In this document: positions 12,526 to 57,946 of the stretch, in pieces
Position numbering within the stretch: the first letter of the stretch is position 1
Layout: each line of letters starts with the position of its first letter
Source of the DNA: an uncultured Bacteroidales bacterium
GTDB lineage: Bacteria; Bacteroidota; Bacteroidia; Bacteroidales; UBA932
Reading direction: 5' to 3'
NCBI GenBank assembly: GCA_946999645.1
Contig: CAMQDS010000006.1
Location: 21,883 to 85,882, forward strand
Length of the DNA stretch: 64,000 nt
Notes under the pieces: model-generated
What the model was told of the DNA's origin: nothing
Seen by the model: the letters and a program-made list of their open reading frames with translations, nothing else
Database searches by the model: none
Position numbers and translations under genes: made by a program

Positions 12526-12528
12526 GAT

Positions 12529-14618: not shown

Positions 14619-14652
14619 TTAATAGAATAAAATAGTTAATTTAAAATGTTAT

Positions 14653-16185: not shown

Positions 16186-16197
16186 AACAAGGTAGAG

Positions 16198-26023: not shown

Positions 26024-28090
26024 ATGGGATTTTTCTATATTTTACTATCAGCATTGATTTTATCGGGACCTAAAAATATTTTGCCCGAACCAGTGAAATA
26101 TGAAGTTAAGGAAAATTATTATTGCCTTAATGGAAACATAACCTATAAAATAGAATCATACGATTTTGAAAGAAAGGAAAAACTTATAGATCAAATAAAT
26201 GAGTCTTTTCCGAAACTTATAAATGTATCTTCTAGTCCAAACATACATATATTTATTGAGGGAAAAAGGTTTAAAAATAAACTGAAGATAAATTCGTGTC
26301 CAGATAATTTAATTAATGAAGGATATAAATTAGAAATTAATAAAAAAGGAATAATTATTAGGTCCGAAGATATACAGGGGGCTTATTATGCCTTAATCAG
26401 TATTGACCAAATGCTGTTGTTTTCTTCTAACTTGCAGTATTGTAATATCTTAGACTATCCTCGTTATGGTTATAGGGGAATGATGTTGGATTTATCGCGT
26501 CACTTTAGTTCTGCAGATTTTATAAAAAAGCAGATTAATATGATGAGTAGTCTGAAAATGAATAAATTACATCTTCACCTTACAGATGATGCCGGGTGGC
26601 GTATTCAGATAGATAAGTATCCTCGACTTAAAACCTATTCGGCATGGCGTATAGGCAAGACATGGAAAGAGTGGTATAATACCACTAAATCTTATACAGA
26701 AGAAGGAACTCCAGGGGCGTATGGAGGTTACCTTACCAAGGATGAGATTAAGGATTTAGTGAAATATGCATCAAAAAGAAATATTGAAATCATCCCTGAA
26801 ATTGAAATTCCAGGACATAGTCGTGAACTTATAATGGCTTATCCGCAAATAGCCTGTCGTACCAATAAGTCTGATTTGAAAACTATGATTGAAAGTTCGG
26901 ATGTCTGCCCCGGCAATGAAGAAACATATACAATGTTTAGCAATATCTTGTCTGAAATCGCTGAACTGTTCCCATCAAAATATATTCATATAGGAGGCGA
27001 TGAGGCCGTAAAGTCTTCATGGAAAAATTGTGCTATTTGTAAGGAAAGAGTTAGAGAACAAGGATTTAACTCAATAGATGAGTTGCAGGGCTATTGTATT
27101 AATCGTATTTATAATATCGCCCACTCTTTGGGTAAAAAGATTATAGGATGGGATGAAATGTTAGATAGTAAAATTCCTGATGATGTTACTATTATGGCAT
27201 GGAGGGGAATAGAGTCTGCACAAAAAGCCATAAACACTGGGCATAAAGTAATATTTACACCTACATCACATTGCTACCTTGATTATACTCAGGACCCACA
27301 ATTTAAAGAGCCTGAATCGATAGGGGGTTATACCCCATTGGAACAATGTTATTCACTTGAACCTGAAGAGAATAACTCAGATCGCCAATATATCTTGGGT
27401 GTTCAGGGTAATCTTTGGAGAGAATTTATACCTACAGATGAATATTCCGAATACATGCTTTATCCTCGTATTTATGCTCTTGCAGAAGTTGGCTGGTCTC
27501 CTAAAGGAACAAAAAATTATACTGCATTCAGGCACAGGGCAAACGATTTTAGAAAAAAGATGAAAGAAAGAGGTTACAATTCTTTCGATATGGATACGGA
27601 GTTGGGCAATAGACCAGAATACTATCAGGTAACAGAACATTTGGCAAAGGGTAAAAAAGTAATATTCAATACAGCATACGAAGACAAGTATTCTGGATCG
27701 GGAGAAGGTACTTTGACGGATGGTCTTTTTGGGGGTTGTAATCATGCTGACGGAAGGTGGTTAGGTTTTCTTAACAAAGATGTTGAACTTACTGTAGATC
27801 TTGGTAGTGTTCAAGAACTTCATTACATAGGTTCGTCATTTTTAGGGGCTAAAAACGTGTGGATTGGAAGACCTGAAAAGGTTGAAATATTTGTTTCAGA
27901 CAACGGGCAAAACTTCAAACCGATATTAACAATTTTAGATGAAATTCCAGAACCTGTTGAAAAACAAATATTTATTAACTATGGTGGAGTAGTAAATACA
28001 TCAGCACGTTTCGTGAAATACAAAGCTTACAGGAGGAAAGCAAAGCTATATAACGACTGGCTATTTTTAGATGAACTTATAGTCAATTAA
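26024..28090 (+). CDS. GH20 beta-N-acetylhexosaminidase with C-terminal F5/8 type C (discoidin)-like domain
   Basis: GH20 catalytic motifs [14 protein letters not shown] and HIGGDEA. The C-terminal ~150 aa are beta-sandwich-like. 688 aa. Confidence 0.8.
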
Positions 28091-33525: not shown

Positions 33526-34677
33526 TCAGCCATTTACGTAATCTTTTACATCCTGTTCACTTATTGGATTTCCTCCGAGTATTAGCAATCGTTCTACAAC
33601 ATTTCTCAATTCTCTGATATTACCTGTCCACGTTTTTTGTTGTAATAATTCTATTGCTTCTTTTGAAAAGACTTTAGCCTGCATTCCAGACTCTGCACAA
33701 ATCTGATTTACAAAATAGTCTATGAGTATAGGAATATCATCTTTTCTATCATCAAGAGATGGCACCTGTATAACTATAACGCTTATACGATGATAAAGGT
33801 CTTCACGGAAAGTGCCTTTTGCTATCTCCGCTTTAAGATCTTTATTTGTCGCAGCAATAACCCTTACATCTACCTCTATATCCTTGTCGCTTCCTACTCT
33901 GGATAACTTCTTTTCTTGTAATACTCTCAATACCTTGGCTTGTGCAGCAAGGCTCATATCTCCAATCTCATCCAAAAAAAGCGTACCGCCATCGGCCTGT
34001 TCAAATTTTCCTTTGTGTTGTTTTATAGCAGAGGTGAATGCTCCCTTTTCATGTCCGAACAATTCACTCTCAATAAGTTCCGAAGGAATAGCAGCACAGT
34101 TAACCTCTATATATGGCATAGGACTCCTGTTGCTTTGCTTGTGAAGGCTTCTTGCAACTAACTCTTTTCCTGAGCCATTCGGCCCAGTAATAAGTACTCT
34201 TGCATCGGTAGGCGCTACCTTATTGATTATATCCCTTACATGTTCTATGGCTACAGACTCTCCGATCATCTGCTTTCCATATACTTTTTTCTTAAGTATT
34301 TGGTTGTCCTTGACGAGGTTTACCTTTTCTGCAGCATTTTTGATGGTTATCAAAATCCTGTTCAAATCCAGAGGCTTGGATATGAAATCAAAGGCTCCTT
34401 TTTTTATACATTCTACTGCAATATCAATATCTCCATGTCCAGAAATCATTACAACAGCAGAATCTACACCAGCAGAAATTAAGGTCTCAAGTACTTGTGT
34501 ACCTTCCATTTTTGGCATTTTTATATCACAAAAAATGACATCATACCTTTCTTTTTCCGCCATTTCGCAGGCAACAGTTCCATCTTCTGCTACATCAACA
34601 TCATATCCCTCATCCATAAGAATTTCTTTCAATGAGTTACGTATTGCCCTTTCGTCATCGGCTACAAGAATTTTCAT
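33526..34677 (-). CDS. Sigma-54-dependent response regulator lacking a C-terminal DNA-binding domain
   Basis: REC domain (ILVADDE...D at the phospho-acceptor position). AAA+ sigma-54 activation domain with Walker A GPNGSGKE, GAFTSA motif and arginine finger region. The protein ends about 15 aa after the AAA+ domain, with no HTH_8. Confidence 0.8.
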   Translation of the reverse strand: MKILVADDERAIRNSLKEILMDEGYDVDVAEDGTVACEMAEKERYDVIFCDIKMPKMEGTQVLETLISAGVDSAVVMISGHGDIDIAVECIKKGAFDFISKPLDLNRILITIKNAAEKVNLVKDNQILKKKVYGKQMIGESVAIEHVRDIINKVAPTDARVLITGPNGSGKELVARSLHKQSNRSPMPYIEVNCAAIPSELIESELFGHEKGAFTSAIKQHKGKFEQADGGTLFLDEIGDMSLAAQAKVLRVLQEKKLSRVGSDKDIEVDVRVIAATNKDLKAEIAKGTFREDLYHRISVIVIQVPSLDDRKDDIPILIDYFVNQICAESGMQAKVFSKEAIELLQQKTWTGNIRELRNVVERLLILGGNPISEQDVKDYVNG

Positions 34678-38550: not shown

Positions 38551-39024
38551 ATGAAGATTACTTTATTGACAATGGGTAAAACAGATGTGACCTGGGTTAG
38601 GCAGGGCTTGGAATTGTATGTCACTCGTCTGAAACATTATATTCCATTCAGTATGATAGAATTGCCTGAATTGAAAAATGCAGGTTCTCTGACTAAGGAG
38701 CAAATAAAAGTTAAAGAAGGTCATCTTATTGCCGATATATTGAAGCCTTCAGATGAGGTAATTCTTCTTGATGAGAGGGGAAAAGAGTATTCATCAATGG
38801 AATTTGCACACTATATAGAAAATCGCTTAACATTATCTGGGAAAAATATGGTGTTTGTAATAGGTGGTGCTTATGGCTTTTCGAATGAAATTTATGAAAG
38901 AGCGGATTGTAAGATTTCTCTTTCCAAAATGACCTTTTCTCATCAAATGGTAAGAACTGTTTTTGCAGAGCAACTTTATAGAGCCTTTACTATAATAAAA
39001 GGGGAGCCTTATCATCATGAATGA
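38551..39024 (+). CDS. rlmH: 23S rRNA (pseudouridine1915-N3)-methyltransferase
   Basis: MKITLLTMGKT...ELPELK N-terminus and the SPOUT-fold length (157 aa). The start is taken at the internal Met rather than the 214-aa ORF start at 38380. Confidence 0.8.
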   Translation: MKITLLTMGKTDVTWVRQGLELYVTRLKHYIPFSMIELPELKNAGSLTKEQIKVKEGHLIADILKPSDEVILLDERGKEYSSMEFAHYIENRLTLSGKNMVFVIGGAYGFSNEIYERADCKISLSKMTFSHQMVRTVFAEQLYRAFTIIKGEPYHHE

Positions 39025-42000
39025 TTTGAAAACAGAACGGATTAATTGGCTTAAACGTCACGTTTGGCTTATTTTTTTAATAATTGCCACTTTAATACTC
39101 TTATTTTCCATATTCATAAATAGAAAATCTGATTCTGCAGATTCGGTGGCTGTCAATGTTTCCCATGTAATATCGGGAAGAATGAAAATGCTTGACTCCT
39201 ATATGTCTATAGTGGCGAGTGGGCAAGAATGGACAGAACTTGACGGTTTCCCCGACGATATGGTTATTTATCGATATGAAAATGACTCTCTTAAATCGTG
39301 GTATAATCAGTTTACTCTCGACAACGATGATATAAGCAGGAGAATGTATATACCGAGGTTTATGAGCCTTAGGTATAATGTCGTATCTCCTCTTTCAGAA
39401 GTAGATACTGTTGTAAATTATATTAATATAGGACCTAAGTGGTATTTAGTAAAGGCTAAAAAAGTAGGATTTTATACTACTATAATTGGTGGGTTGGAAA
39501 TTAAAAATATGATGTCTTCAAATTCTTATAATGGAGTAAATAGGCATCTTAAAGTATCTGACGGTTTTTCTCTTTATCCTATATCTTATAGCGGAGGGGC
39601 TCCTATATATGTTGCTAACCGGCCTCTGATTAAGATTATTCAGGAAAATAATAGGATAGGTTCTATTTTGCCAAATCCTATATATATATGGATTTCTTTG
39701 TTTATAATCCTTGCAGCCCTATTGTATTTGCTTCGCTCATATCGGACTTTTCCGATGATGTGGACAGTTATGTTATTGAATACTATTATTATAGGGACTG
39801 TAATTATATTTGGAAAAAGTTTTCAGTCGGTATCACAGATATTTTCTCCAACTATATATGCACAAGGAGCCGTTTTGTATTCATTGGCTTCATTACTGCT
39901 TCTCAACTTGTGGATTGTTGTAATGATAACCTGCATATATCTGCTGCGAAAAAATATTATTTTGGCTTTTGAAAGTAAATTTCCTCATATTGGATTTAAA
40001 CTATATGCTGGTGTTATAATTTGCTCTATCATAGCCCTTGCCATATATATACACCTTACTTTGAAGGGTGTTATAATGAATTCCAATATTACACTTGAAC
40101 TTTATCGTATTAGTGGAATAACCCAATATACAGTTTATGTATATATTTCATATATGTCCCTTCTTATTATGCTGTTGGTTCTTATTGCTCTCCTAAAACC
40201 AGCGGTAAGGAAGTTTTATGGGGTAAAATATGATGTATTGTCAAGAACTTGGAGGATAATATTTTCTATAATTAGTGCCTTGTATCTATTGGCGATGTCT
40301 TCAATAATAGGCTTTACTAAAGAAAAAAATAGAATTGATATATGGGCTAATCGTCTTGCTGTAGACAGAAATCTTGGTTTTGAGTTACGATTGAAGGGCA
40401 TTGAAACTGCTATAGCCTCTGACCCTGTATTACCCTTGCTTATTTTCAAAAACAAGGATTATAGAGTTGTAATGAGGAGGATTAAAGAGAGTTATTTGAG
40501 TAAAATAAGTCAGGATTATGAAACCACATTGCAAATATTTAGTGATTCCGATCCTGTGACTGAAACTATTAAGTATTACAGTGAACGTCTTAGAAACGGT
40601 ATTGCAATATCTGATAGTTCACACTTTGTCTATTCTCGCTCGTCTAATGGAAGGGCTCAATATACAGGTATTTTTACATACTATAATCCTTCTTTAGGTG
40701 TAACTAGATTGATTTTGGGTATAGATTCCAGTATAGATATGGAAGGTGCCGGATACGCAGGAATAATAGGGGATGCCGGTAGCGGGTCTGTCGTAGTGCC
40801 TCGTAGATATTCATATTGTAAATACCTTTCAGGTAATCTAATAAGTTATGGGGGTGTTTATCCTTATTCTACTGTATTTTCTGGAAAATTTAAAGAGATA
40901 AGTGATGATTTAGGTAGCGGCAGTGTTATAATAGGGGATTATATCCATTTTGTAAACCGTGTTTCTAATAATGAAACAATTGTAATATCTGAAAGAAAAG
41001 TTGGGTTCGTAAAATATATGGTATCAGGTTTCCTGATAGCCCTACTTGCATTTTTCTCAATAAGTATTCCTACTATAAAAAAAATTGGAAAAACTTTATT
41101 TGAAAAAAATTATTATAAGACAAGGATTAATACTGTATTGTATCTTTCCCTTTTTGCTACACTTATAGCCATGACATCTGTCAGTGTCTTATTTATTTAT
41201 AGCAGAAATGAAAAAAACATGATGGAGATGATGACGGGTAAAATTAATACAATACAGTCTTTTATAGCGGCAAGAAGTAGTTATCTTTCATCATATCACG
41301 ATTATGAAAAACCTGAATTTAGCAGTCTTATTGAAAAAATAGGAGTTTATACAAAGTCGGATGTTTCATTGTATACTCCAGAGGGCAAGGTTTTCCGCTC
41401 TACATCTCCAGAAATATTTGAACGCCTATTGCTTGGCTCCAGACTTAATGAAGATGCTTATAAAGCTATAATGTATAGAAATAAGCGATATTTTATACAT
41501 AAGGAAAAGTTTGCAGGATACTCATATTATGCAATGTATGCTCCTGTAATAAATAATGAAGGTAAAAAATTAGCCATTATTTGTGCTCCATATACTGATT
41601 CTGGTTTGGATTTTAAGGAAGATGCTGTATTTCATGCTATTTTCATAATTACCGTATTCTTAATACTTGTAGTTGTTACACGAATTTTATCTTCTAAGGT
41701 AATAGAAAGAATGTTCAGACCTTTGTTGGAAATGGGGGTTAAGATGAACCTTGCAAGAGAAAACGGGTTGGAATATATAATATATGAGAGGGATGATGAA
41801 ATTACAAGTCTTGTAAGATCATACAATCTGATGGTTCATGACCTATACGAAAGCAGCAAACAGGCGGCACAACTTGAACGCAATAAGGCGTGGAATGAAA
41901 TGGCACGTCAGGTGGCTCACGAAATTAAAAATCCGCTTACTCCTATAAAGTTGCAGATACAGCGTATAATAAGAATGAAACAGAAACATGCTCCTGATTG

Positions 42001-42586
42001 GGAGGCTAAGTTTGATACTATTGTTCCTGTAATAATGAATAGTATTGACAGTTTGACGGATACTGCTAATGAATTTTCTACTTTTGCTAAATTATATAGT
42101 GAGCCTTCTGTACTCATTGATATAGATGAACTTGCATCATCTCAGGTGATGTTGTTCTCTGGCAGAGAAAATATTATTATCCAATATATAGGACTGAAAA
42201 ATGCTATGGTTATAGGTCCTAAACCTCAACTTACGAGGGTCTTTGTCAATCTTTTGACAAATGCCATACAGGCAATCGAAAATAAACAGCAAGAAGATTT
42301 TGAAAATAATATTGAGCCTAAGCCGGGACTTATCCGTCTTTCTGTGAGAAACAGTATAGAAGACGGATATTATGATGTAGTTATCGAAGACAATGGACCA
42401 GGAGTAAAAGATGAAGATAGAAACAAACTATTTACACCTAACTTTACTACCAAGAGCAGCGGTACTGGTCTTGGGCTGGCAATATGTAAGAATATTTTGG
42501 AACTATGTGGAGGTGCCATTCAATACAGTCGTTCATTCTCGCTGCAAGGAGCCTGCTTCACCTTCCGCATACCGAAGTATAGATAA
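39017..42586 (+). CDS. Large multi-pass membrane sensor histidine kinase (no receiver domain)
   Basis: H-box HEIKNPLTPIKLQIQRI. HATPase_c with N, G1 (DNGPGV) and G2 (GTGLGLAICKNILELCGG) boxes. About 10 predicted transmembrane segments and two extracytoplasmic regions upstream of the kinase core. Overlaps the rlmH stop by 8 nt. Confidence 0.8.
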   Translation: MNDLKTERINWLKRHVWLIFLIIATLILLFSIFINRKSDSADSVAVNVSHVISGRMKMLDSYMSIVASGQEWTELDGFPDDMVIYRYENDSLKSWYNQFTLDNDDISRRMYIPRFMSLRYNVVSPLSEVDTVVNYINIGPKWYLVKAKKVGFYTTIIGGLEIKNMMSSNSYNGVNRHLKVSDGFSLYPISYSGGAPIYVANRPLIKIIQENNRIGSILPNPIYIWISLFIILAALLYLLRSYRTFPMMWTVMLLNTIIIGTVIIFGKSFQSVSQIFSPTIYAQGAVLYSLASLLLLNLWIVVMITCIYLLRKNIILAFESKFPHIGFKLYAGVIICSIIALAIYIHLTLKGVIMNSNITLELYRISGITQYTVYVYISYMSLLIMLLVLIALLKPAVRKFYGVKYDVLSRTWRIIFSIISALYLLAMSSIIGFTKEKNRIDIWANRLAVDRNLGFELRLKGIETAIASDPVLPLLIFKNKDYRVVMRRIKESYLSKISQDYETTLQIFSDSDPVTETIKYYSERLRNGIAISDSSHFVYSRSSNGRAQYTGIFTYYNPSLGVTRLILGIDSSIDMEGAGYAGIIGDAGSGSVVVPRRYSYCKYLSGNLISYGGVYPYSTVFSGKFKEISDDLGSGSVIIGDYIHFVNRVSNNETIVISERKVGFVKYMVSGFLIALLAFFSISIPTIKKIGKTLFEKNYYKTRINTVLYLSLFATLIAMTSVSVLFIYSRNEKNMMEMMTGKINTIQSFIAARSSYLSSYHDYEKPEFSSLIEKIGVYTKSDVSLYTPEGKVFRSTSPEIFERLLLGSRLNEDAYKAIMYRNKRYFIHKEKFAGYSYYAMYAPVINNEGKKLAIICAPYTDSGLDFKEDAVFHAIFIITVFLILVVVTRILSSKVIERMFRPLLEMGVKMNLARENGLEYIIYERDDEITSLVRSYNLMVHDLYESSKQAAQLERNKAWNEMARQVAHEIKNPLTPIKLQIQRIIRMKQKHAPDWEAKFDTIVPVIMNSIDSLTDTANEFSTFAKLYSEPSVLIDIDELASSQVMLFSGRENIIIQYIGLKNAMVIGPKPQLTRVFVNLLTNAIQAIENKQQEDFENNIEPKPGLIRLSVRNSIEDGYYDVVIEDNGPGVKDEDRNKLFTPNFTTKSSGTGLGLAICKNILELCGGAIQYSRSFSLQGACFTFRIPKYR

Positions 42587-46999: not shown

Positions 47000-47194
47000 A
47001 TGGCAGAAGAAAAATTTGACTATTCAAAAGCTATGAAAGAGCTTGAGGATTTGGCAGCTAAAGTGGAAGATCCAAAAACTTGTTTGGATGATATCGGCAC
47101 TCTTGTAAAAAAATCAAAAAAACTCATTGAAGATTGTCGTAAATATTTGAGGTCTATAAGGGAAACAGTTGATGATATAGATAGCAATAAATAA
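47000..47194 (+). CDS. xseB: Exodeoxyribonuclease VII small subunit
   Basis: 64-aa helical protein directly after xseA. FDYSKAMKELEDLAAKVED resembles the XseB N-terminus. Confidence 0.75.
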   Translation: MAEEKFDYSKAMKELEDLAAKVEDPKTCLDDIGTLVKKSKKLIEDCRKYLRSIRETVDDIDSNK

Positions 47195-49203
47195 TGGAAG
47201 CAAAAAAAATATATGAGACTGACCCGTATCTTTTGCCGTTTAAGGATAAGATAGACTTACGTCAAGAACAAGCAGTCAAATATAAATCCCGTTTTTCGGT
47301 AAACGGTTCTCTTGCCGCAGGGATGAATAATCACCTATATTATGGATTACACAAGGCTTCTGATGGAGGTTGGGTCTTCAGAGAATGGGCGCCTAATGCC
47401 CAGAGAATATATCTTATCGGTGAGTTTAATAATTGGAAAAAACTTCCATCATACCAATTAAGAGCAATAGGATCAGGAAACTGGGAAATTTATTTGCCTG
47501 AGATGTTTCTTCATCACGAAGAACTATACAGACTTTACATAGAATGGATTGGCGGAGGTGGGGACAGGTTACCTGCTTATGTAACGAGAGTAGTACAGGA
47601 TGAAAACACAAAAATTTTCAATGCTCAAGTTTGGGATCCTTCTAAATCATACAAATGGCAAAATCCTCGTCCTGAAAAAAAAGAGTCGCCAATGATTTAT
47701 GAATGTCATATAGGAATGTCATCTGAGGAGGAAAAGGTGGCATCTTTTAATGATTTTCGTAAAGATGTGCTTCCTTATATAGCAGGATTAGGATACAATA
47801 CCATTCAAATTATGGCTCTTCAGGAGCATCCCTACTACGGCTCTTTTGGTTATCAGGTATCTAACTTTTATGCTCTAAGTTCAAGATTTGGTACACCTGA
47901 AGAATTTAAAGCCTTAGTAGATGAAGCCCATGGATATGGTATATCCGTTATTATGGATATAGTTCATTCTCACAGTGTTGATAATGAAAATGAGGGTCTT
48001 GGATTTTTTGATGGTCGTGACGATTTGTATTTTTATTCAGGGGCTCAAGGAAGACACCCTGCATGGGGTTCAAGGTGTTTTGATTATGGTAAAGATGAAA
48101 CAAAATACTTTTTGCTTTCAAATTGTAAGTTCTGGCTCGAAGAATATATGCTTGATGGCTTTCGCTTTGATGGTGTCACGAGTATGCTTTATTGGGATCA
48201 TGGCTTAGGTAAATCTTTTTCTGGATACGAAAATTATTTTGGCAGTGGAGTAGATGAGAATGCTGTTTGTTATCTTACCCTTGCTAATATGTTGATTAAG
48301 GAATTACTTCCAGATGCTTTGACTATAGCGGAGGATGTAAGTGGAATGCCTGGACTTGCCGCTTCTTTTGAGGCAGGAGGAATAGGTTTTGGCTATCGTA
48401 TGGCTATGGGAATTGCAGATCATTGGATAAAATGGATAAAAGAAAAGAGTGACAATGATTGGAGTCCTGGAGAAATATGGTATGAACTTACTAATAAGCG
48501 TGCGGATGAGAAAACAATAAGTTATGCGGAGTGTCATGATCAGGCTCTTGTAGGGGATAAAACCATAATATTCAGACTTATGGATAAAGAGATGTATTTC
48601 TCTATGAATACAGTCTCTCGCTCTCCTATAGTAGATAGGGGAATAGCCTTGCATAAGATGATTAGATTGGTGACACTATCTACAGCAGGTGGTGGGTATC
48701 TTACATTTATGGGAAATGAATTTGGTCATCCTGAATGGATAGATTTTCCGCGTGAAGGAAACGGTTGGTCTTATAAATATGCTCGTAGGCAATGGAGTTT
48801 AGTTAAACCTAAGTATCTAAGGTATTCTTATCTAATGGAATTTGATAAGGCAATGATTAAGATGGCGAAAGGCGAAGACATACTATCAGAACCTCCTATT
48901 TTATTGACAGCAGATGAGGAAAAGAAAATTTTAATTTTCATTAGGTGTAATTGTATATTCGCATTCAATTTTAATCCTACAACATCATTTACGGATTATG
49001 GGTTTTCTGCACCTGAAGGAAGTTACAGCATTATATTAAATTCTGATGAGGAGAGATTTAACGGGTTTTCTCGTATAACATTGGGGGAGAAACATATAAC
49101 TATCAAAAAAAAGTGTCCTAATGGTAATAGAAATTTCAACAATACTCTTTATCTTTACTTGCCGAGCAGGTGTGCAATTGTTTTGAAAAAATATAATCAA
49201 TAA
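47194..49203 (+). CDS. glgB: 1,4-alpha-glucan branching enzyme (GH13)
   Basis: GH13 catalytic regions DIVHSH, GFRFDGVTSMLY, AEDVSG and ECHDQ. 669 aa. Confidence 0.85.
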   Translation: MEAKKIYETDPYLLPFKDKIDLRQEQAVKYKSRFSVNGSLAAGMNNHLYYGLHKASDGGWVFREWAPNAQRIYLIGEFNNWKKLPSYQLRAIGSGNWEIYLPEMFLHHEELYRLYIEWIGGGGDRLPAYVTRVVQDENTKIFNAQVWDPSKSYKWQNPRPEKKESPMIYECHIGMSSEEEKVASFNDFRKDVLPYIAGLGYNTIQIMALQEHPYYGSFGYQVSNFYALSSRFGTPEEFKALVDEAHGYGISVIMDIVHSHSVDNENEGLGFFDGRDDLYFYSGAQGRHPAWGSRCFDYGKDETKYFLLSNCKFWLEEYMLDGFRFDGVTSMLYWDHGLGKSFSGYENYFGSGVDENAVCYLTLANMLIKELLPDALTIAEDVSGMPGLAASFEAGGIGFGYRMAMGIADHWIKWIKEKSDNDWSPGEIWYELTNKRADEKTISYAECHDQALVGDKTIIFRLMDKEMYFSMNTVSRSPIVDRGIALHKMIRLVTLSTAGGGYLTFMGNEFGHPEWIDFPREGNGWSYKYARRQWSLVKPKYLRYSYLMEFDKAMIKMAKGEDILSEPPILLTADEEKKILIFIRCNCIFAFNFNPTTSFTDYGFSAPEGSYSIILNSDEERFNGFSRITLGEKHITIKKKCPNGNRNFNNTLYLYLPSRCAIVLKKYNQ

Positions 49204-49209
49204 AAAGTT

Positions 49210-51147
49210 ATGGCCTTTCTTAAGTTTAATAAAACGGAACTTGTGAATCTTTCTTATTCGCTCAAGAGGGAAATAATATGTGCAAATAAGACAGGTGCAT
49301 ATTGTAATACCTCAATAGTGACTTGCAACACAAGGCGTTACCATGGTCTTTTAGGCGTTCCAGTTGATAATTTTTCTGGAAATAAGCATCTTTTACTTTC
49401 TTCCCTTGATGAAAGCATCATAATCAATGGACAACAATTCAATCTCGGAATACATCGATATGGTAATGTGTATGAGCCGAGAGGACATAAATATATAGTT
49501 GATTTTGAGTCTGATCCTATACCAGAAATTACTTATAAAGTAGGGGAAATTATTTTTGTGAAAAGCATTCTACTTGCTCCAGATAATGATCAAGTTTTAA
49601 TCCGTTATGAATTGGTAGATGCTCCTGCCAAAATAGAACTTCAACTAAAACCTTTCCTTGCTTTTAGAAATATACACAGTCTTACAGCAAAGAATGACGA
49701 TGCTAATACAACTTACAGAGAAATAAAAAATGGAGTTGCTTTTAAACTTTATGAGGGCTTTCCTGACTTAAATATGCAACTTAGTTCTTCAAAGGGAGTT
49801 TTTAAATATAATCCGTATTGGTATAACGGAATAACATATCTTGATGAATATAGAAGAGGTTTTGATTGCAAGGAAGATTTATTTGTGCCGGGATATTTTT
49901 CTATAAACATGAAAGAAGGAGATGTTTTATATTTTTCTGCTTCAGTAAACGAAGTCCTCCCTACAAATATCAAAAAGATTTTTAAAGACGGGTTTGCAAG
50001 GCTTGGAGAAATAAAGAATGAACATGATCAATTATTGCATTGTGCAGATCTTCTTATTCGTGACAGAAACGGCAAAAAACGCATAACTGCTGGTTTTTCA
50101 TGGCTTTATACTGGACTGCTTAGGGAAACCCTTTATGCCTTGCCGGGGCTAACTCTATTTGGAAAAGGTGGGAAAAAGGAGTTTGAAGAAATACTCGACA
50201 ATCTTATAAAGGATGAACAAGAAAGGCTTTTCCATAGAACCACTCAGGTTGAGGCTCCATTAAGATTAATTTGTGATTTGCAAATGTATATTGATTTCGG
50301 GGCTGATGAAAAACAGGTTTGGAAGAAATATGGTGATACAGTAAAGAATATAATAAAGAGTTATGCTGCAGGCGTAAGAAAGGAAATATCCTTGCAGCCA
50401 GACGGACTTTTGTGGGCTCAAATGGATAATGTGGCTCTTACTTGGATGAATGCCTACGTTGATGGACATCCTGTAACAGAAAGAGGTGGCTATCAGGTGG
50501 AAACCAATGCCTATTGGTATAATGCCCTATGCTTTGCTTTGGAAATGGAAGATAAATATGGACCAAAGAGAAGTCGTTTTAAATCTGACTGGGCTCCAAT
50601 AAGGGATTTATGTCTTAAGAATTTTCAGCCTAAATTCTTAGATCCTACTCTTGGTTATCTTGCTGATTATATTGATAATAATGGCAGACATATGGAAGTG
50701 CGTCCAAATCAACTTTATGCAGTTTGGGTGAAAAATTCTCCTATAGACGATGAAGTTGCAAGCCGCATTATGAAGGTTGTTGAAAATGAATTGATTACAA
50801 GAAGAGGCGTGCGAACTCTTTCTCCTCGTGACGCACAGTATCGCGGAGTGTATGAGGGAACTCAGACGGAAAGGGATCTTGCATATCATCAGGGCAGCAC
50901 AAGAATTTCTTGTCTATATACTTACGTCGATTGTGCGTTTAGAATGTGGGGAGCAACTTTTTATAAAAAAGCAGAGTGGTTAGTTAAAGGTTTCTATGAG
51001 GATTTGAATAAACACGGTGTAGGAACATTTTCCGAACTATACGATGGTGATCCTCCACACGAACCACATGGAGCAATCTCATCTGCGATGAGTACAGCGG
51101 CTCTTCTTGGTATAGAATATTTAATGAATAAATACGAGGAGGATTAA
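49210..51147 (+). CDS. Glycogen debranching enzyme-family protein (GDE_N + amylo-alpha-1,6-glucosidase-like C-terminal domain)
   Basis: 645 aa. N-terminus ANKTGAYCNTSIVTCNTRRYHGLL is typical of bacterial/archaeal GDE family proteins. Sits in a glycogen gene cluster. Confidence 0.65.
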   Translation: MAFLKFNKTELVNLSYSLKREIICANKTGAYCNTSIVTCNTRRYHGLLGVPVDNFSGNKHLLLSSLDESIIINGQQFNLGIHRYGNVYEPRGHKYIVDFESDPIPEITYKVGEIIFVKSILLAPDNDQVLIRYELVDAPAKIELQLKPFLAFRNIHSLTAKNDDANTTYREIKNGVAFKLYEGFPDLNMQLSSSKGVFKYNPYWYNGITYLDEYRRGFDCKEDLFVPGYFSINMKEGDVLYFSASVNEVLPTNIKKIFKDGFARLGEIKNEHDQLLHCADLLIRDRNGKKRITAGFSWLYTGLLRETLYALPGLTLFGKGGKKEFEEILDNLIKDEQERLFHRTTQVEAPLRLICDLQMYIDFGADEKQVWKKYGDTVKNIIKSYAAGVRKEISLQPDGLLWAQMDNVALTWMNAYVDGHPVTERGGYQVETNAYWYNALCFALEMEDKYGPKRSRFKSDWAPIRDLCLKNFQPKFLDPTLGYLADYIDNNGRHMEVRPNQLYAVWVKNSPIDDEVASRIMKVVENELITRRGVRTLSPRDAQYRGVYEGTQTERDLAYHQGSTRISCLYTYVDCAFRMWGATFYKKAEWLVKGFYEDLNKHGVGTFSELYDGDPPHEPHGAISSAMSTAALLGIEYLMNKYEED

Positions 51148-51149
51148 AT

Positions 51150-52445
51150 ATGAGAATATTAATGTTTGGTTGGGAGTTTCCTCCTCACATTGCTGGAGGA
51201 CTTGGAACAGCTTGTTATGGAATAGTTAAGGGCTTGGCATATAATGGAGTAGATACAATCTTTGTTATGCCATCGGCTTCTGGTGATGAAGATAAAAATG
51301 TCGCTAAAATAGTTGATGCAAGTGATGTTGCTGTTGATTTTCATGAATCGTTGAACATAGGCGAATTTCTTGATAAAATACAGTTCGTTCATATTGGTTC
51401 AAATATGATACCTTATTTGGATCCTCAAGAGTTTCATGACTTGGTGGAAAAAGAGAAAAAGCGTCAGGAAAAGGATTTCAAAGTAGTGTTCGGAAGTAAA
51501 TACAAGTTTTCCGGAAAATATGGTTCAAATCTGATGGAAGAAGTGGCACGGTATGCAATGGTTGGTGGTACTGTAGCCCTTCAAAGAAAGAATGAATTTG
51601 ATGTTATTCATGCACATGATTGGCTGACATACAATGCTGGGATAGCGGCAAAGAGGCTTACAGGGAAACCGTTGGTAGTTCATGTTCATGCGACATCATT
51701 TGACAGGAGCAGCGATCAGAATGTGGACACAAGAGTTTATGAAATAGAAAGAAACGGTATGTTGGAGGCAGATAAGGTTATTACTGTAAGTGACCTTACC
51801 CGTAATATAGTTATTACAAAGTACGGTATACCTCCTTCAAAAGTAGTAACTGTACATAATGCAGTTGATTTTACAGGAAGAAATAGTATAGATATAGAGA
51901 GAGGGGTGCGGGACAAGGTTGTTACTTTCTTGGGAAGAATAACTTTTCAGAAAGGGCCTGAATATTTTATAGAAGCTGCGGCAAAAATTCTCAAACGTGT
52001 AAAAAATGTGCGTTTTGTTATGGCAGGAAGTGGGGATATGATGAACCGCAGTATAAGGCATGTAGCAAGACTCGGTATTTCAGATAAATTCCATTTTACA
52101 GGATTTTTAAGAGGAGAAGATGTACAGAAAATGTTTGCTTTGTCGGATGTTTATGTGATGCCATCTGTATCTGAACCTTTTGGTATATCTCCTTTGGAGG
52201 CAATGCGTTCAGGTGTACCTTCCATTATCTCGAAACAATCAGGGGCTGCGGAAGTCTTGAAATATGCTTTTAAGGTTGATTTTTGGGATGTTGATGCAAT
52301 GGCAGATCGTATATTCGGGCTTCTCAAATATCCGGCGTTGTCTGAATTTGCCGCAAAACACGGATATGATGAAGTAAATGACTTGAAGTGGAATAATGCT
52401 ACTGCAAAAATAAAAAATGTATATGAATCGTTAATAAAGGGATAA
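51150..52445 (+). CDS. GT-B glycosyltransferase, archaeal-type (GT5/GT4-like) glycogen synthase candidate
   Basis: N-terminus MRILMFGWEFPPHIAGGLGTA resembles the small GT5 glycogen synthase start (M+ILxxxxEFxPxxvGGL). E-x7-E region in the C-terminal half. 431 aa. Confidence 0.65.
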   Translation: MRILMFGWEFPPHIAGGLGTACYGIVKGLAYNGVDTIFVMPSASGDEDKNVAKIVDASDVAVDFHESLNIGEFLDKIQFVHIGSNMIPYLDPQEFHDLVEKEKKRQEKDFKVVFGSKYKFSGKYGSNLMEEVARYAMVGGTVALQRKNEFDVIHAHDWLTYNAGIAAKRLTGKPLVVHVHATSFDRSSDQNVDTRVYEIERNGMLEADKVITVSDLTRNIVITKYGIPPSKVVTVHNAVDFTGRNSIDIERGVRDKVVTFLGRITFQKGPEYFIEAAAKILKRVKNVRFVMAGSGDMMNRSIRHVARLGISDKFHFTGFLRGEDVQKMFALSDVYVMPSVSEPFGISPLEAMRSGVPSIISKQSGAAEVLKYAFKVDFWDVDAMADRIFGLLKYPALSEFAAKHGYDEVNDLKWNNATAKIKNVYESLIKG

Positions 52446-52448
52446 ACC

Positions 52449-53705
52449 ATGGCTAATAAAACAATAACACTCTATTTCCAAGTTCATCAGCCTACAAGGC
52501 TTAGACTTTATAGATTTTTTGATATAGGTAAGGATTCACATTATTATGATGATTTTGCCAATAGAACTATTTTAAAAAGAGTAGCTCAACGCTGCTATCT
52601 TCCTATGAATGACTTGCTTTTAAAACTTATAAAAAAATATAAGGGCAAGTTTAAGGTGGCTTTTTCGATATCAGGTTCTGTGTTAGAGCAGTTTGAGCGT
52701 TATTCACCCGAAGTTATAGATAGTTTTAGAGAACTTGCAAATACAGGCTCTGTGGAGTTCCTTTGCGAAACTTACTATCATTCATTGGCTAGCCTTGCTT
52801 CTCCTAATGAATTTAAACATCAGGTACTTAAACATAAAGAGGCGATTAATCACTATTTTGGAATAACTCCTACAGCTTTTAGGAATACAGAACTCATATA
52901 TTCCAATTCTATAGGTGAACAGGTATATGATATGGGGTTCAAGACCCTGCTTACTGAGGGAGCAAAACATATAATGGGCTGGAAAAGTCCTGATTATGTG
53001 TACCATGCAGAAACTCGTCCGAAACTCAAACTTCTGTTAAGAAATTATAAATTCAGTGATGATATAGCGTTTAGGTTTTCAAATAAATCATGGAACGAGT
53101 GGCCGCTCACATGTGAAAAATATCTGAATTGGTTGAAAGCATCTGCTGCCGAAGGTGGTGATGTGATTAACTTGTTCATGGATTATGAAACTTTTGGTGA
53201 ACACCAAAAAGCCTCTTCTGGTATTTTTGATTTTATGAAGTATCTTCCAGAACTTATTATAAAGGACGGAACCTTTGAATTTGCCACTCCATCTGAATGT
53301 TCTGAAAAATATGAGGCTGTTGCTGATCTTGATGTCCCTGAGCCTATTTCATGGGCCGATGAAGAGAGGGATACCACTGCATGGCTTGGAAATGAACTGC
53401 AGCAGGAAGCTTTCAACAAAATATATGGTCTTATAGAAAAGTTATCATTAGTAAATGATTCTCAGTTGTGGAATGATTTTGGACATCTTCAGGAGAGTGA
53501 TCATTTGTACTATATGTGTACAAAGTTTTTCTCAGATGGAGAAGTTCATAAATATTTTAACCCTTATGACACCCCTTATGAGGCATTTATTAACTATATG
53601 AACGTTTTAAGTGATTTTACTTTAAGAGTAAATGATGAAATTTCAATTTTAGATACTAAATTTGCAGCTCCTGTGAAAAAGAAAAGGACAGTTAAAAAGA
53701 AGTAA
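52449..53705 (+). CDS. GH57-family glycoside hydrolase (alpha-amylase / 4-alpha-glucanotransferase / branching-type)
   Basis: N-terminus ITLYFQVHQPTRL with the HQP motif of GH57. 418 aa. Confidence 0.75.
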   Translation: MANKTITLYFQVHQPTRLRLYRFFDIGKDSHYYDDFANRTILKRVAQRCYLPMNDLLLKLIKKYKGKFKVAFSISGSVLEQFERYSPEVIDSFRELANTGSVEFLCETYYHSLASLASPNEFKHQVLKHKEAINHYFGITPTAFRNTELIYSNSIGEQVYDMGFKTLLTEGAKHIMGWKSPDYVYHAETRPKLKLLLRNYKFSDDIAFRFSNKSWNEWPLTCEKYLNWLKASAAEGGDVINLFMDYETFGEHQKASSGIFDFMKYLPELIIKDGTFEFATPSECSEKYEAVADLDVPEPISWADEERDTTAWLGNELQQEAFNKIYGLIEKLSLVNDSQLWNDFGHLQESDHLYYMCTKFFSDGEVHKYFNPYDTPYEAFINYMNVLSDFTLRVNDEISILDTKFAAPVKKKRTVKKK

Positions 53706-56700
53706 TGGTAGAACAAAATGTAAAGCCCGATTATCTGTTTGAGGTAAGTTGGGAGGTCTGTAATAAAATAGGGGGCATATATACAGTTATTGCCACTAAG
53801 GCTCTATATCTGAAATCAAAATTCAAGAGACATCATATTCTTATCGGTCCTGATGTATGGATGGATACGGAGAGTAATCCGGATTTCATAGAAGATGATA
53901 AATTATATTCATCATGGAAGGCTAAGGCAAATGCAAACGGCTTAAGAGTTCGTATTGGTACTTGGAATGTCCCAGGCAATCCAATAGCGATATTGGTTGA
54001 TTACAAGCAATTTCTTACAACTCAAAATGATATTCTTACTGAATATTGGTTAAAATTTGGTGTTGATTCGATTACTGGAAATTGGGATTATAAGGAGTCA
54101 GTGCTGTTTGGTTATGCTGCAGGTAAGGTAATAGAGAGCTTTTATAAATGTAATCTGATGGCATCAGATAAGGTTGTGGCTCAATTCCATGAATGGCAGT
54201 CAGGAGCAGGTCTTCTTTATTTGAAAGATACAAAACTCCCTATTGCTACGGTATTTACTACTCATGCGACAGTCTTGGGACGTTGTCTTGCCGGTAACAA
54301 TCTTCCACTTTATGATAAGTGTACCTCATACAATCCCGATGAGTATTCAAGGCGTTTCAATGTAGTTGCAAGACATTCATTGGAATCAATATCTGCCCGT
54401 AATGCCGATGTATTCACAACTGTAAGTGAAATAACTTCTGCAGAATGTGAACGTTTTCTTGGTCGAAAGCCTGACTTGGTGACACCTAATGGTTTTGAAA
54501 ACAGTTTTACTCCTAGCTCTGATGAGGAATATTCTGATAAGAGAAGTGCAGCAAGAAAGAAACTTATTGAAGTGGCTTCTGCGATGTCAGGAGAACAGAT
54601 TGAGGATGATGCCATACTTATAGGAATAGGTGGAAGGTATGAATATAGAAATAAGGGGATAGATGTTTTTATAGACTCGCTTGTTTCTCTTAGGGATAGT
54701 GGCTATTCTGGTAAAACTGTGCATGCCTTCATTATGATTCCTTCTGGTCATAAAGGGGCTGATAAACAGTTATTGTCAAAATTATCAGGGAATTTAAGTA
54801 ACAATTATACAACTCAAGTATCTCATGTTCTTATGGATAGGGAACATGATATTATAGTTAATCGTCTTTCCCAAACTGGACTTATAAACAAGCATGGTTC
54901 AAAAGTAAATGTATATTTTATTCCTTCATATCTTACTGGTAATGATGGAATATTTAATATGAAATATTATGACTTGCTGGTAGGGTTGGATTTAGCATTA
55001 TTCCCTTCATATTATGAGCCTTGGGGATATACCCCTTTGGAGGCTCTTGCATTCAGGGTGCCTACTCTTACTACAACTCTTGCCGGCTTTGGTCTTTGGG
55101 TTTTGGCGCATTATAAAAATTCAGTACATCCTGGTATTGCTATAATAGAAAGAAATGAAAATAATTATAGAGAAGTAGTTGAAGGGGTTGTAAAGAGAAT
55201 AAAAGAGATTTCCACTATAGATAATAAAACAAAAATTGCCTATATGGCTAATGCTTGTGAGGTAGCATCTATAGCATTATGGGAAAATCAAATAGTATAT
55301 TATAAAAAAGCCTATTCAATAGCCATCTGCAAGGTAATTGCAGAAAAAGGAGAATTTCCTAAAACAAATAATACTGAAAATATGAAATACGAAAAGATAC
55401 AGATAAACGCTCCTACGTGGAAGAGCGTTATGATTACACGTCATCTTCCTGAGTCACTTTCGGGCTTGGAAACATTATCAAAAAATTTATGGTGGTGCTG
55501 GAATGACAGTGCAAAGGCTCTTTTTAAGTCTGTGGATCCTGAAATATGGCATAACTCAGGACATAATCCTATGACAGTTCTTGATACAGTAAGTCTTAAG
55601 AGGTTTAATTCTCTTGCTAAAGATAAAACCTTCCTTGCTCAACTTAAGGCTGTAATGGATGAGTTTAATGCCTATATGGATTTGAAAAAAGAGCGTAAAT
55701 CTCCTCTTACCGCATATTTCTGCATGGAATACGGACTTGACACTTCTCTCAAAATCTATTCAGGAGGTCTTGGTGTATTGGCAGGGGACTATCTGAAAGA
55801 AACAAGTGATATGAATGTTAATCTTGTTGCTATAGGATTTCTGTATAGGTATGGATATTTTACGCAAGTAATTACAGCTCAGGGAGATCAGGTGGCAAAA
55901 TATGATGCTCAAGATTTTATGCGTATTCCGGCATCTCCTGTTATGGATAAGAACGGGAATTGGGTAACTACAAGTGTTGCTTTCCCGGGAAGAAATATAA
56001 CCGCACGTATTTGGAAAGTGGCTGTTGGACGTACTGACTTGTACTTGCTCGATGCTGATTATGAGGCAAATATACCTGAAGATCGTCAGGTAACTCATCA
56101 CCTTTATGGTGGCGACTGGGAAAACAGATTAAAACAAGAGTTGTTTTTAGGTGTTGGCGGTATACGTGCCTTGCGTGCTTTGGGCATCGAACCTCAAATC
56201 TTCCATTGTAATGAGGGACATGCTGCATTTACAGGGCTTGAAAGATTGCGTGAGTATATTCAAAATGATAATCTTTCATTTGCTGAGGCTCTTGAAGTTG
56301 TAAGGGCATCTTCCCTATTCACAACTCATACTCCTGTTCCTGCTGGTCATGATGCCTTCGATGAAGATATATTGAGAAAATATATAGGTCATTATCCTGC
56401 AAGACTTAAGGTTGATTGGGAAACCATGATGGGGCTTGGAAAGTTGGATGGAAGGGATGTCAATGAAAAATTCTCAATGAGTATACTTGCTGCTAATATT
56501 TCTCAAAATGTCAATGGTGTTTCACGTCTTCATGGAGAAGTAAGCCGAAATATATTCTCAAATATGTATCCTGGTTACCTACCAGAGGAATTGTTTGTAA
56601 GTTATGTTACAAATGGTGTTCACTATCCTACATGGACGGCAAAACAGTGGAAAGCAATTCATAAAAAAGCATTTGGTCCAGAATTTCAGACATATCATTA

Positions 56701-57946
56701 CAACAAACAATGTTTTGAAGGAATATACAATGTGCCTGATAGCGAAATCTGGGAAACCAGAAAGTTATTGAAAACCAATTTGATAAATATAGTAAAGGAA
56801 AGAATCTCCAATCTCAGCATGTGCAGCTACTATTCTCCTCGTGAAATAGTTGAGATAAAGGATAACCTACGTCCTGATGTGCTTACTATTGGATTTGCAA
56901 GACGTTTTGCTACCTACAAGAGAGCGACTTTGCTCTTTAGCGATTTGGATATGTTAGATTCAATAGTAAATAATCCTCAGAGACCTGTGCAGTTTATATT
57001 TGCAGGTAAGGCTCATCCAGCTGATAAAGCAGGTCAGGATTTGATAAAACAAATAATCTCCATATCAAAGCAAGAGAGATTCCTTGGAAAAATAGTATTT
57101 GTCCCAGGTTATGATATTAATCTTGCAAAAAGACTTGTTCAAGGTGTAGATGTATGGATGAATAATCCTACAAGACCTCTTGAAGCATCAGGAACATCTG
57201 GAGAAAAGGCTGCTATGAATGGAGTAATGCATTTCTCTGTGCTTGATGGCTGGTGGGTTGAAGGTTATCGTGAAAACGCGGGTTGGGCTTTACCGCAGCA
57301 AAGAACCTACGAAGATCAAAATTATCAGAATGAACTGGATGCAGCAACTATCTATGCTAAACTTGAAAATGAAATAGCTCCTGCATATTATGATGTCGAT
57401 AAAAAGACAGGTCGTTCTGAAAAATGGATAGGTTACATAAAGAATGTAATAGCCCAAGTGGCATGTAACTTTACTACCAACAGAATGTTGACAGATTATG
57501 TCAATCAATATTATACACCTCAAGCTAAACGTGCTGCAAGTCTTATAGCAAATGATTACAAATTAGCACGTCAAATAGCTGACTGGAAAGCATTTGTAGA
57601 AAGGGAATGGCCTAGCATAGAAGTCGTTTCATATACTAATACAGAATCCTCTTATAGCGTATCCCAAGAGAATTATATGCATGCTGAAGCTGTATTGAAT
57701 TTGGGTGATTTAACCCAAGGCGATATAGGTGTTGAGATGCTTTTCTGTACAACAGATAGTAAAGGAGACCTTCATATACTTGATAAGTGTGAGTTTGAAG
57801 TAGTTTCTTTTAATGATGGGGTAGCGACATATCGTGCTTCCGTCTTGCCTGAAAGGTCGGGTATGTATCAGGTGGCAACAAGAATGTATGCTAAAAATCC
57901 TTTATTGCCACATAGACAGGATTTCGGATTAGTGAGATGGTTGTAG
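53705..57946 (+). CDS. Fusion protein: N-terminal eukaryote-like (GT3) glycogen synthase + C-terminal alpha-glucan phosphorylase (GT35)
   Basis: aa 1 to about 560: FEVSWEVCNKIGGIYTV and WQSGAG, typical of GT3 glycogen synthases. aa about 570-1413: LPESLSGLETLSKNLWWCWN (alpha-glucan phosphorylase N-terminal DUF3417 pattern), FTTHTPVPAGHDAF and the PLP-lysine region EASGTSGEKAAMNG. One uninterrupted 1413-aa ORF. Confidence 0.75.
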   Translation: MVEQNVKPDYLFEVSWEVCNKIGGIYTVIATKALYLKSKFKRHHILIGPDVWMDTESNPDFIEDDKLYSSWKAKANANGLRVRIGTWNVPGNPIAILVDYKQFLTTQNDILTEYWLKFGVDSITGNWDYKESVLFGYAAGKVIESFYKCNLMASDKVVAQFHEWQSGAGLLYLKDTKLPIATVFTTHATVLGRCLAGNNLPLYDKCTSYNPDEYSRRFNVVARHSLESISARNADVFTTVSEITSAECERFLGRKPDLVTPNGFENSFTPSSDEEYSDKRSAARKKLIEVASAMSGEQIEDDAILIGIGGRYEYRNKGIDVFIDSLVSLRDSGYSGKTVHAFIMIPSGHKGADKQLLSKLSGNLSNNYTTQVSHVLMDREHDIIVNRLSQTGLINKHGSKVNVYFIPSYLTGNDGIFNMKYYDLLVGLDLALFPSYYEPWGYTPLEALAFRVPTLTTTLAGFGLWVLAHYKNSVHPGIAIIERNENNYREVVEGVVKRIKEISTIDNKTKIAYMANACEVASIALWENQIVYYKKAYSIAICKVIAEKGEFPKTNNTENMKYEKIQINAPTWKSVMITRHLPESLSGLETLSKNLWWCWNDSAKALFKSVDPEIWHNSGHNPMTVLDTVSLKRFNSLAKDKTFLAQLKAVMDEFNAYMDLKKERKSPLTAYFCMEYGLDTSLKIYSGGLGVLAGDYLKETSDMNVNLVAIGFLYRYGYFTQVITAQGDQVAKYDAQDFMRIPASPVMDKNGNWVTTSVAFPGRNITARIWKVAVGRTDLYLLDADYEANIPEDRQVTHHLYGGDWENRLKQELFLGVGGIRALRALGIEPQIFHCNEGHAAFTGLERLREYIQNDNLSFAEALEVVRASSLFTTHTPVPAGHDAFDEDILRKYIGHYPARLKVDWETMMGLGKLDGRDVNEKFSMSILAANISQNVNGVSRLHGEVSRNIFSNMYPGYLPEELFVSYVTNGVHYPTWTAKQWKAIHKKAFGPEFQTYHYNKQCFEGIYNVPDSEIWETRKLLKTNLINIVKERISNLSMCSYYSPREIVEIKDNLRPDVLTIGFARRFATYKRATLLFSDLDMLDSIVNNPQRPVQFIFAGKAHPADKAGQDLIKQIISISKQERFLGKIVFVPGYDINLAKRLVQGVDVWMNNPTRPLEASGTSGEKAAMNGVMHFSVLDGWWVEGYRENAGWALPQQRTYEDQNYQNELDAATIYAKLENEIAPAYYDVDKKTGRSEKWIGYIKNVIAQVACNFTTNRMLTDYVNQYYTPQAKRAASLIANDYKLARQIADWKAFVEREWPSIEVVSYTNTESSYSVSQENYMHAEAVLNLGDLTQGDIGVEMLFCTTDSKGDLHILDKCEFEVVSFNDGVATYRASVLPERSGMYQVATRMYAKNPLLPHRQDFGLVRWL

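Follow-up and report, generated by a model that had tools for sequence, protein, structure and literature searches.

A probable single-polypeptide glycogen synthase-glycogen phosphorylase at the end of a Bacteroidales glycogen operon, with a candidate internal start site at its domain junction

Can a single polypeptide carry both the enzyme that extends glycogen and the enzyme that degrades it? The question is raised by a 64,000-nucleotide stretch of contig CAMQDS010000006.1 (hereafter, the window), in which one open reading frame (ORF) of 1,413 codons joins a GT3-type glycogen synthase to a GT35 alpha-glucan phosphorylase. The host, a relative of Candidatus Cryptobacteroides, is an uncultured member of the Bacteroidales from gut or rumen. 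An earlier inspection of the DNA letters (hereafter, the sequence-only reading) had singled out this fusion as unusual, while allowing for a stop codon lost in this lineage or for an assembly artefact. We are confident that the ORF encodes a genuine single-polypeptide glycogen synthase-glycogen phosphorylase, that it belongs to an already catalogued family (KEGG K16153), and that it is the last gene of a glycogen operon. The only new element is the signature of an internal start site at the junction of the two domains, and this signature is purely computational. The parts of the ORF that carry the argument are as follows:

53705..57946, + strand: whole fused ORF, 1,413 amino acids plus stop, with an ATG start (ORF listing and translation)
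53729..55348, + strand: GT3 glycogen synthase domain, residues ~9-548 (Pfam PF05693, structure matches)
55016..55042, + strand: E-X7-E motif, E438...E446 within FPSYYEPWGYTPLEA (alignment of homologues)
55382..55750, + strand: N-terminal loop and alpha-helical DUF3417 domain of the phosphorylase, residues 560-682 (PF11897, alignment to ScGP, the Segatella copri phosphorylase)
55712..57520, + strand: GT35 phosphorylase catalytic core, residues 670-1272 (TIGR02094, ScGP structure 9L6I)
57206..57208, + strand: lysine K1168 that binds pyridoxal phosphate (PLP), equivalent to ScGP K609 (ScGP alignment; invariant in 121/121)
57572..57943, + strand: C-terminal beta-sheet domain GlgP_C (PF28476), residues ~1290-1413, boundaries approximate (Pfam)

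Translation of the 1,413 codons on the + strand encounters no internal stop. At the N-terminus, PF05693 (Glycogen_syn) is matched in Pfam with an E-value of 2e-97 (327.5 bits against a cut-off of 27); the remainder matches DUF3417 (PF11897, residues 581-682), PF00343 (Phosphorylase, residues 832-1186; 103 bits, cut-off 27) and, in NCBIfam, TIGR02094 (alpha-glucan family phosphorylase; 827.7 bits, cut-off 191.7). All of these scores are far above chance. The GlgP_C annotation was precomputed on a public protein, P0001, that is identical to the window's 1,413-residue product. A eukaryote-like GT3 synthase and a complete GT35 phosphorylase therefore do share one frame, as the sequence-only reading had proposed from six peptides, each of which we located in the translation: FEVSWEVCNKIGGIYTV (residues 12-28), WQSGAG (164-169), KTNNTENMKYEKIQINAPTWKSV across the linker (553-575), LPESLSGLETLSKNLWWCWN (581-600), FTTHTPVPAGHDAF (872-885) and EASGTSGEKAAMNG (1160-1173).

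Is this continuous frame a property of the organism, or a product of faulty assembly or sequencing, or of a frameshift or stop-codon loss private to this genome? In favour of the latter we found only that the split arrangement does occur in other families. Against it, the identical protein, flanked by the same gene neighbours, is present in two independent Logan assemblies (SRR31166427 and SRR31166211; L170 and L171), in which the DNA of the ORF differs from that of the window at 46 of 4,242 positions, all of them synonymous and none non-synonymous. The 46 silent differences indicate that the two Logan copies and the window come from different strains; the lack of any non-synonymous change further indicates that strong purifying selection acts on the ORF from end to end, across the junction as well. 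Moreover, the 120 best-matching protein clusters (70-100% identity, 100% query coverage) are without exception full-length fusions of 1395-1414 amino acids, two of them comprising >4000 and >5000 sequences. Relatives were also detected in at least 555 genomes in a scan of one genome per GTDB species, and the fusion is full-length in 80/80 of the best-matching genome loci; these 80 are mostly metagenome-assembled genomes (MAGs) of gut and rumen Bacteroidales, many named Candidatus Cryptobacteroides. The copies from other runs and the full-length homologues together rule out an artefact or private frameshift, an explanation to which we assign a negligible probability; with it falls the idea that this assembly might be the sole fused case.

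Nor is the architecture as unusual as had been supposed: it is old, already known, and common both in gut Bacteroidales and in several other phyla. An exhaustive search with the synthase half alone returned 505 clusters (at the 50% identity level) with E <1e-30, and among the best 150 of these, 51 run on into a phosphorylase, down to 34% identity. Named fused members come from Desulfovibrionaceae, Planctomycetota, Bdellovibrionota and the acidobacterium Sulfidibacter corallicola (WP_237377747.1), and a second, sister clade of Bacteroidota (at least 120 clusters) is fused throughout. The combination also has its own entry in KEGG, K16153, defined as glycogen phosphorylase/synthase [EC 2.4.1.1 2.4.1.11] (PMC8307300, PMC11017998): the window ORF has the K16153 architecture, a GT3 synthase and a GT35 phosphorylase in a single polypeptide, with the same domain order and a length of ~1400-1450 residues, and we see no architectural difference. 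K16153 is a database category, behind which we did not find an experimental paper. In IMG the fusion carries the product names 'phosphorylase/glycogen(starch) synthase', given to P0040 and P0076 (73% and 72% identical to the window protein over their full length), and 'glycogen phosphorylase/synthase', borne by P0285 and, for example, P0358 and P0360; the named homologues of the sister clade are 56-79% identical to P0123, and these values do not refer to the window protein. RefSeq labels the fusion proteins only as 'alpha-glucan family phosphorylase', a name that hides the synthase half, so that pathway reconstructions of these abundant gut bacteria can miss their glycogen synthase.

Six contigs (L012, L014, L018, L029, L056 and L069) carry a Bacteroidales-type fusion, 70-75% identical, under the labels Bulleidia, Methanomethylophilaceae archaeon, Eubacteriales, Acutalibacteraceae, Flexilinea and Treponemataceae. 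All six belong to one 'cleanbin' MAG series, and the odd labels are probably binning or labelling errors rather than signs of gene transfer.

What kind of synthase is the N-terminal half? It aligns with the structures of the Caenorhabditis elegans, human and yeast glycogen synthases in two stretches, with E-values of ~1e-75 (GSY-1, GYS1 and Gsy2p; PDB 4QLB, 7Q0B and 3NAZ). With these enzymes it has in common PF05693, at a hidden Markov model score above threshold, the GT-B fold and the motifs of a retaining GT-B synthase, and the alignment spans both Rossmann halves. Family-wide, the HEW, GRYE..NKG and E-X7-E motifs are retained, E-X7-E being near-identical in the aligned eukaryotic synthases; all 121 of 121 close homologues share H162, E163, W164, R311, E438 and E446, and in a 45-sequence alignment that spans two clades the conservation of K317 is at least 90%. 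The differences lie in the regulatory parts. The ~68-residue eukaryotic insert (human residues 371-439), which adds the helices that permit tetramer formation, is reduced to only ~19 residues in the window synthase, ~50 fewer. The eukaryotic arginine cluster, SRRQRIIQRNRTER, which senses glucose-6-phosphate and phosphorylation, aligns to DNKTKIAYMANACE with no arginine kept. Phospho-regulatory tails are likewise absent, and the C-terminus continues into the phosphorylase so that there is no free tail. The alignment thus reveals none of these three features of a eukaryote-type regulated synthase, and on these grounds we regard the domain as a GT3 member without eukaryotic-type regulation. Its glucosyl donor is most likely UDP-glucose (uridine diphosphate glucose), by analogy with Prevotella bryantii B14, for which PMC7935935 and PMC4432691 cite a UDP-glucose-dependent glycogen synthesis that lacks glgC; Pfam scans of the window found neither glgC nor galU within it.

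The phosphorylase half has a relative of solved structure. Residues 560-1413 align end to end, up to the last ScGP residue, with Segatella copri ScGP (852 amino acids, PDB 9L6I; E 1e-285), a clade 2 phosphorylase that forms an asymmetric pentamer wrapping glycogen particles, and that is inhibited by adenosine monophosphate (AMP), which drives decamer formation (PMC12912991). The half shows every clade-2 GT35/TIGR02094 hallmark that we examined: a model score above threshold, the PLP lysine, the phosphate- and substrate-binding residues, DUF3417 and the C-terminal GlgP_C domain. The catalytic residues of ScGP are H316, R507, R508, K513 and the PLP lysine K609 (PMC12912991); their counterparts H875, R1066, R1067, K1072 and K1168 are kept in 120-121 of 121 proteins, and the PLP lysine that the sequence-only reading had placed in this region is K1168. 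ScGP also needs Arg583, in its distal AMP site, for the AMP-induced formation of decamers (PMC12912991). This arginine is missing from the window protein, in which Lys1142 (57128-57130) takes its place: the residue is lysine in 120/121 members of the clade, arginine in 47/47 enzymes of split loci in which the motif was detected (among L081-L160), and variously R, K, Q or S in the sister fused clade. AMP control may therefore differ between fused and split forms. ScGP further differs from the window protein in that it is a stand-alone enzyme of 852 residues, whereas in the window protein a 559-residue synthase and linker precede the phosphorylase.

Judged by these alignments, both halves are complete and keep all of the catalytic residues that we checked. 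This bears on an alternative in which one domain lacks catalytic activity and acts only as a glycogen-binding or regulatory module. Such an arrangement has precedents among fused glycogen enzymes, some of which contain a dead domain (chlamydial GlgA-GlgB, for example), and the replacement of ScGP Arg583 could be counted in its favour. It is nevertheless difficult to reconcile with the conservation of every checked catalytic residue of both halves across ~120 homologues, and also in the 45-sequence alignment spanning two clades, or with the high conservation around both active sites in the alignment of close homologues; we consider it very unlikely. Other proteins that covalently unite two enzymes of a single glucan pathway are TreS-Mak, GlgA-GlgB (Waddlia, Estrella) and GlgB-MalQ (Neisseria). 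The steps that they join are consecutive or cooperating, whereas in the window protein the two reactions oppose each other at one and the same chain end.

We now turn to the joint between the two enzymes, and the features that lie there:

55349..55381, + strand: variable linker GEFPKTNNTEN, residues 549-559 (low conservation, AlphaFold model)
55382..55384, + strand: in-frame ATG of M560, candidate internal start codon (alignment to stand-alone phosphorylase)
55352..55411, + strand: A-rich, unstructured 60 nucleotides flanking the internal ATG, resembling an initiation region (composition, predicted minimum free energy)

Among the 20-residue blocks of the protein, conservation is lowest in 541-560 (0.39 identity) and 381-400 (0.38); block 541-560 hardly varies in length within the close set. 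An AlphaFold model of residues 401-900, built from the 45-sequence alignment (mean predicted local distance difference test, pLDDT, of 79), ends the synthase in a long helix (507-548) followed by coil (549-582), with pLDDT <50 for residues 554-577. The coil and its low pLDDT suggest that the joint is a flexible tether of ~30 residues and not a rigid interface.

How does the fused form relate to the split form? Stand-alone GT3 synthases of 536-575 amino acids occur in Bacteroidaceae, Muribaculaceae and Prevotellaceae, and we sampled this form in 80 metagenome loci fetched around a stand-alone synthase (L081-L160). A phosphorylase gene lies downstream of the GT3 gene, on the same strand and after a gap of 21-172 nucleotides, in 71 of the 80, which agrees with the earlier claim that the genes are adjacent but separate elsewhere. 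Seven of the other nine have less than 400 nucleotides of contig left after the synthase; the remaining two (L132 and L158) have 725-876 nucleotides there and no phosphorylase match. The split pair has the same two enzymes, order and strand as the window fusion, with GT3 domains that are ~44% and phosphorylases that are ~51% identical to those of the window protein; its phosphorylase start residue aligns with M560, and it has a stop codon and a short AT-rich spacer where the window fusion has its 11-residue linker. In L146, for example, the TAA of the synthase is followed by a 29-nucleotide AT-rich spacer and then the ATG of the phosphorylase: what separates the two forms is a single stop codon with a short spacer. 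The idea of a lost intergenic stop consequently describes the relationship between fused and split forms correctly, with M560 aligned to the stand-alone start methionine, and fails as a peculiarity of this lineage. A neighbour-joining tree of 117 complete GT3 domains (midpoint-rooted, no support values) places the fused state at the root, requires at least nine fusion or fission changes, and nests the split Bacteroidaceae/Prevotellaceae/Muribaculaceae group inside fused lineages. It suggests that the fused form is ancestral; this is a rough tree on which we do not rely.

Does translation also begin at the junction? M560 aligns without a gap to Met1 of stand-alone ScGP, and it also matches the start of the phosphorylase genes in split loci. 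Methionine is kept at this position in 118/121 proteins, while positions 553-559, 561 and 563 vary freely; Y562, K564 and I565 are conserved as well. At the DNA level, the aligned codon is ATG in 74/79 related loci, two more loci have the methionine one residue off, and one has GTG. We compared the surroundings of this codon with those of other ATGs. The 20 nucleotides 5' of the ATG at 55382 are 65% A, a value reached by 0.5% of 393 other in-frame ATGs and by 9.5% of 42 true starts. The 60 nucleotides around it have a predicted minimum free energy (MFE) of 0.0 kcal/mol, which none of 372 internal ATGs and none of the 42 true starts match (means of -9.2 and -4.7 kcal/mol, respectively).

The same pattern emerges in 81 related genes. 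Adenine at synonymous third positions (A3) has a frequency of 0.49 in the seven codons before the ATG (0.17 expected) and 0.42 in the seven codons after it (0.15 expected); the true N-terminus in those genes has a like pattern (0.38 observed, 0.14 expected), and eight control segments have no A3 excess. Third-position T at the junction is 0.21 as against 0.16 expected. When the entire ORF is scanned in these genes, the A3 excess reaches its maximum in the 15-codon window 553-567 (+0.28; all windows: mean 0.00, standard deviation 0.04), compared with +0.13 at the true N-terminus, and the least structured 60-nucleotide window is centred on residue 561 (-3.7 kcal/mol, as against a mean of -13.7 with a standard deviation of 2.5). 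A second stretch of low mRNA structure, the next lowest in the ORF, lies at residues 1206-1221 (~57320-57370), where the mean MFE is -5.9 to -8.6 as against -13.7 in 80 relatives; no matching synonymous A excess is seen there.

These computed features, a conserved in-frame start codon within what resembles an initiation region, raise the possibility that the gene has two products: the 160-kDa fusion and a free phosphorylase of ~98 kDa initiated at M560, a proposal that complements the single-polypeptide reading and leaves it standing. We put the chance of this at somewhat less than even. The proposal fits what is reported for Bacteroidia, which do not use Shine-Dalgarno sequences and in which starts are selected by low mRNA structure together with upstream adenines (PMC6847099, PMC13000457). 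It also fits the persistence of the methionine, at the position of Met1 of ScGP and of the split-locus enzymes, amid a variable linker; the coincidence at the junction of the ORF-wide A3 maximum and structure minimum, in the absence of an excess in the control segments; and, in the window itself, an ATG that is more open than any of the internal ATGs and true starts with which it was compared. Set against these points, the support is purely computational, A occupies position -3 in only 31% of relatives, and out-of-frame ATGs lie just upstream in several of them, whereas AUGs tend to be avoided in the vicinity of genuine Bacteroidetes starts (PMC6847099). The more distant fused clades lack the methionine; in nine genes of such a clade (L161-L169) we found neither an A3 excess nor a structure dip, in AT-rich genomes where this control has low power, since even the true N-termini there lack an A3 excess.

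A different account of the A-rich junction is that non-preferred, A-ending codons slow ribosomes at the domain boundary, such that the synthase folds before the phosphorylase emerges; the methionine would then be a fossil of the start codon that once stood there, or would have a structural role in the N-terminal loop. A-ending codons are indeed a minority class in the relatives (expected A3 ~0.16), the signal falls exactly at the domain boundary that is predicted to be disordered, and the conserved Y562, K564 and I565 suggest constraint on the loop at the protein level. This account leaves unexplained why an ATG is retained at the exact ancestral start position while its linker neighbours vary; furthermore, the excess is mainly of A and not of T, and resembles that of a true N-terminus. 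We consider the folding pause rather unlikely.

An internal promoter was also considered and rejected: the Bacteroides -7 motif TAnnTTTG is neither enriched nor conserved in the 300 nucleotides upstream of the junction ATG (0.03 per gene), and a separate phosphorylase transcript is thus not indicated.

If initiation at M560 does occur, there would be less than one synthase per phosphorylase, and the two products could assemble into mixed oligomers, such as rings with a tethered synthase on only part of their subunits. We tentatively propose that such initiation has been maintained, that it might supply free phosphorylase, a tunable ratio of the two activities and mixed rings, and that it could have served as a pre-adaptation for the splitting of the gene in Bacteroidaceae and Prevotellaceae.

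The fusion is the last gene of a tightly packed glycogen operon of five, glgB-GH133-GT4-GH57-fusion, all on one strand; the other four are:

47194..49203, + strand: GH13 branching enzyme (Pfam)
49210..51147, + strand: GH133 debranching enzyme (Pfam)
51150..52445, + strand: GT4 glycosyltransferase, 431 amino acids (Pfam)
52449..53705, + strand: GH57 protein, 418 amino acids (Pfam)

The ATG of the fusion shares one nucleotide with the TAA of the GH57 gene (TAATG, 53703-53707), and the start of the ribF ORF overlaps the end of the fusion by 10 nucleotides (57937-57946); these overlapping stop and start codons suggest translational coupling, even with the unrelated flavin gene. Gene order in the operon is the same in L170, and GH133-GT4-GH57-fusion is kept in the second fused clade, where the GH57 gene at this position encodes 459-526 amino acids as against 418 in the window. 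The GH57 neighbour has no match to a PDB sequence at E 1e-5; it may act as a branching enzyme, an amylase or a transferase. The GT4 protein has a starch-synthase-like N-terminal domain (PF08323, E 5e-18) and may work alongside the GT3 domain as a second glucan synthase or a priming one.

How might the two activities work together? We envisage that the GT3 domain would extend alpha-1,4 chains at their non-reducing ends from a nucleotide sugar, without the eukaryotic control devices, and that the clade-2 phosphorylase would remove glucose-1-phosphate from the same ends. Equipped with surface glycogen sites and a C-terminal beta domain, the phosphorylase moiety probably anchors the synthase on the particle, a suggestion that we base on the stand-alone ScGP ring, which wraps glycogen particles. 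Whether glycogen is on balance built up or broken down would then depend on the levels of UDP-glucose, phosphate and AMP rather than on separate localisation, and both activities at once would amount to glycogen cycling, a proposed means of energy spilling in rumen bacteria (PMC4432691).

Several points weigh against this view of the protein. The literature searched yielded neither a biochemical nor a structural study of a fused member, and no enzymology, proteomics or expression data for the window protein or any other fusion. With a lysine in the place of ScGP Arg583, the regulation of ScGP may not carry over to the fusion. The proposed sugar donor is that of a split-type relative, with just ~44% identity in the GT3 domain, and the GT4 enzyme, with its starch-synthase-like domain, could be the main synthase or the priming one.

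The fusion as such is of little consequence, given that it is common in gut and rumen Bacteroidales and that a KEGG number exists for it. Its interest is that a covalent synthase-phosphorylase pair offers a natural test case for glycogen cycling, and that its stand-alone homologue, ScGP, has just been shown to be an unusual AMP-regulated pentamer (PMC12912991).

The remainder of the window is ordinary Bacteroidales chromosome with ~36% G+C, and neither transfer RNAs nor Rfam families were found anywhere in it. A histidine kinase of 1,189 amino acids (39017-42586, + strand) has no Pfam match in its first ~770 residues, and a sigma-54-type response regulator (33526-34677, - strand) has receiver and AAA+ domains but no DNA-binding domain detected by Pfam. 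The region 9514-17772 (+ strand) holds a SusC/SusD-like polysaccharide utilisation locus and, after it, a DUF4843 protein, a PKD-like protein and a 524-residue protein without a Pfam match; a GH20 hexosaminidase is encoded at 26024-28090.

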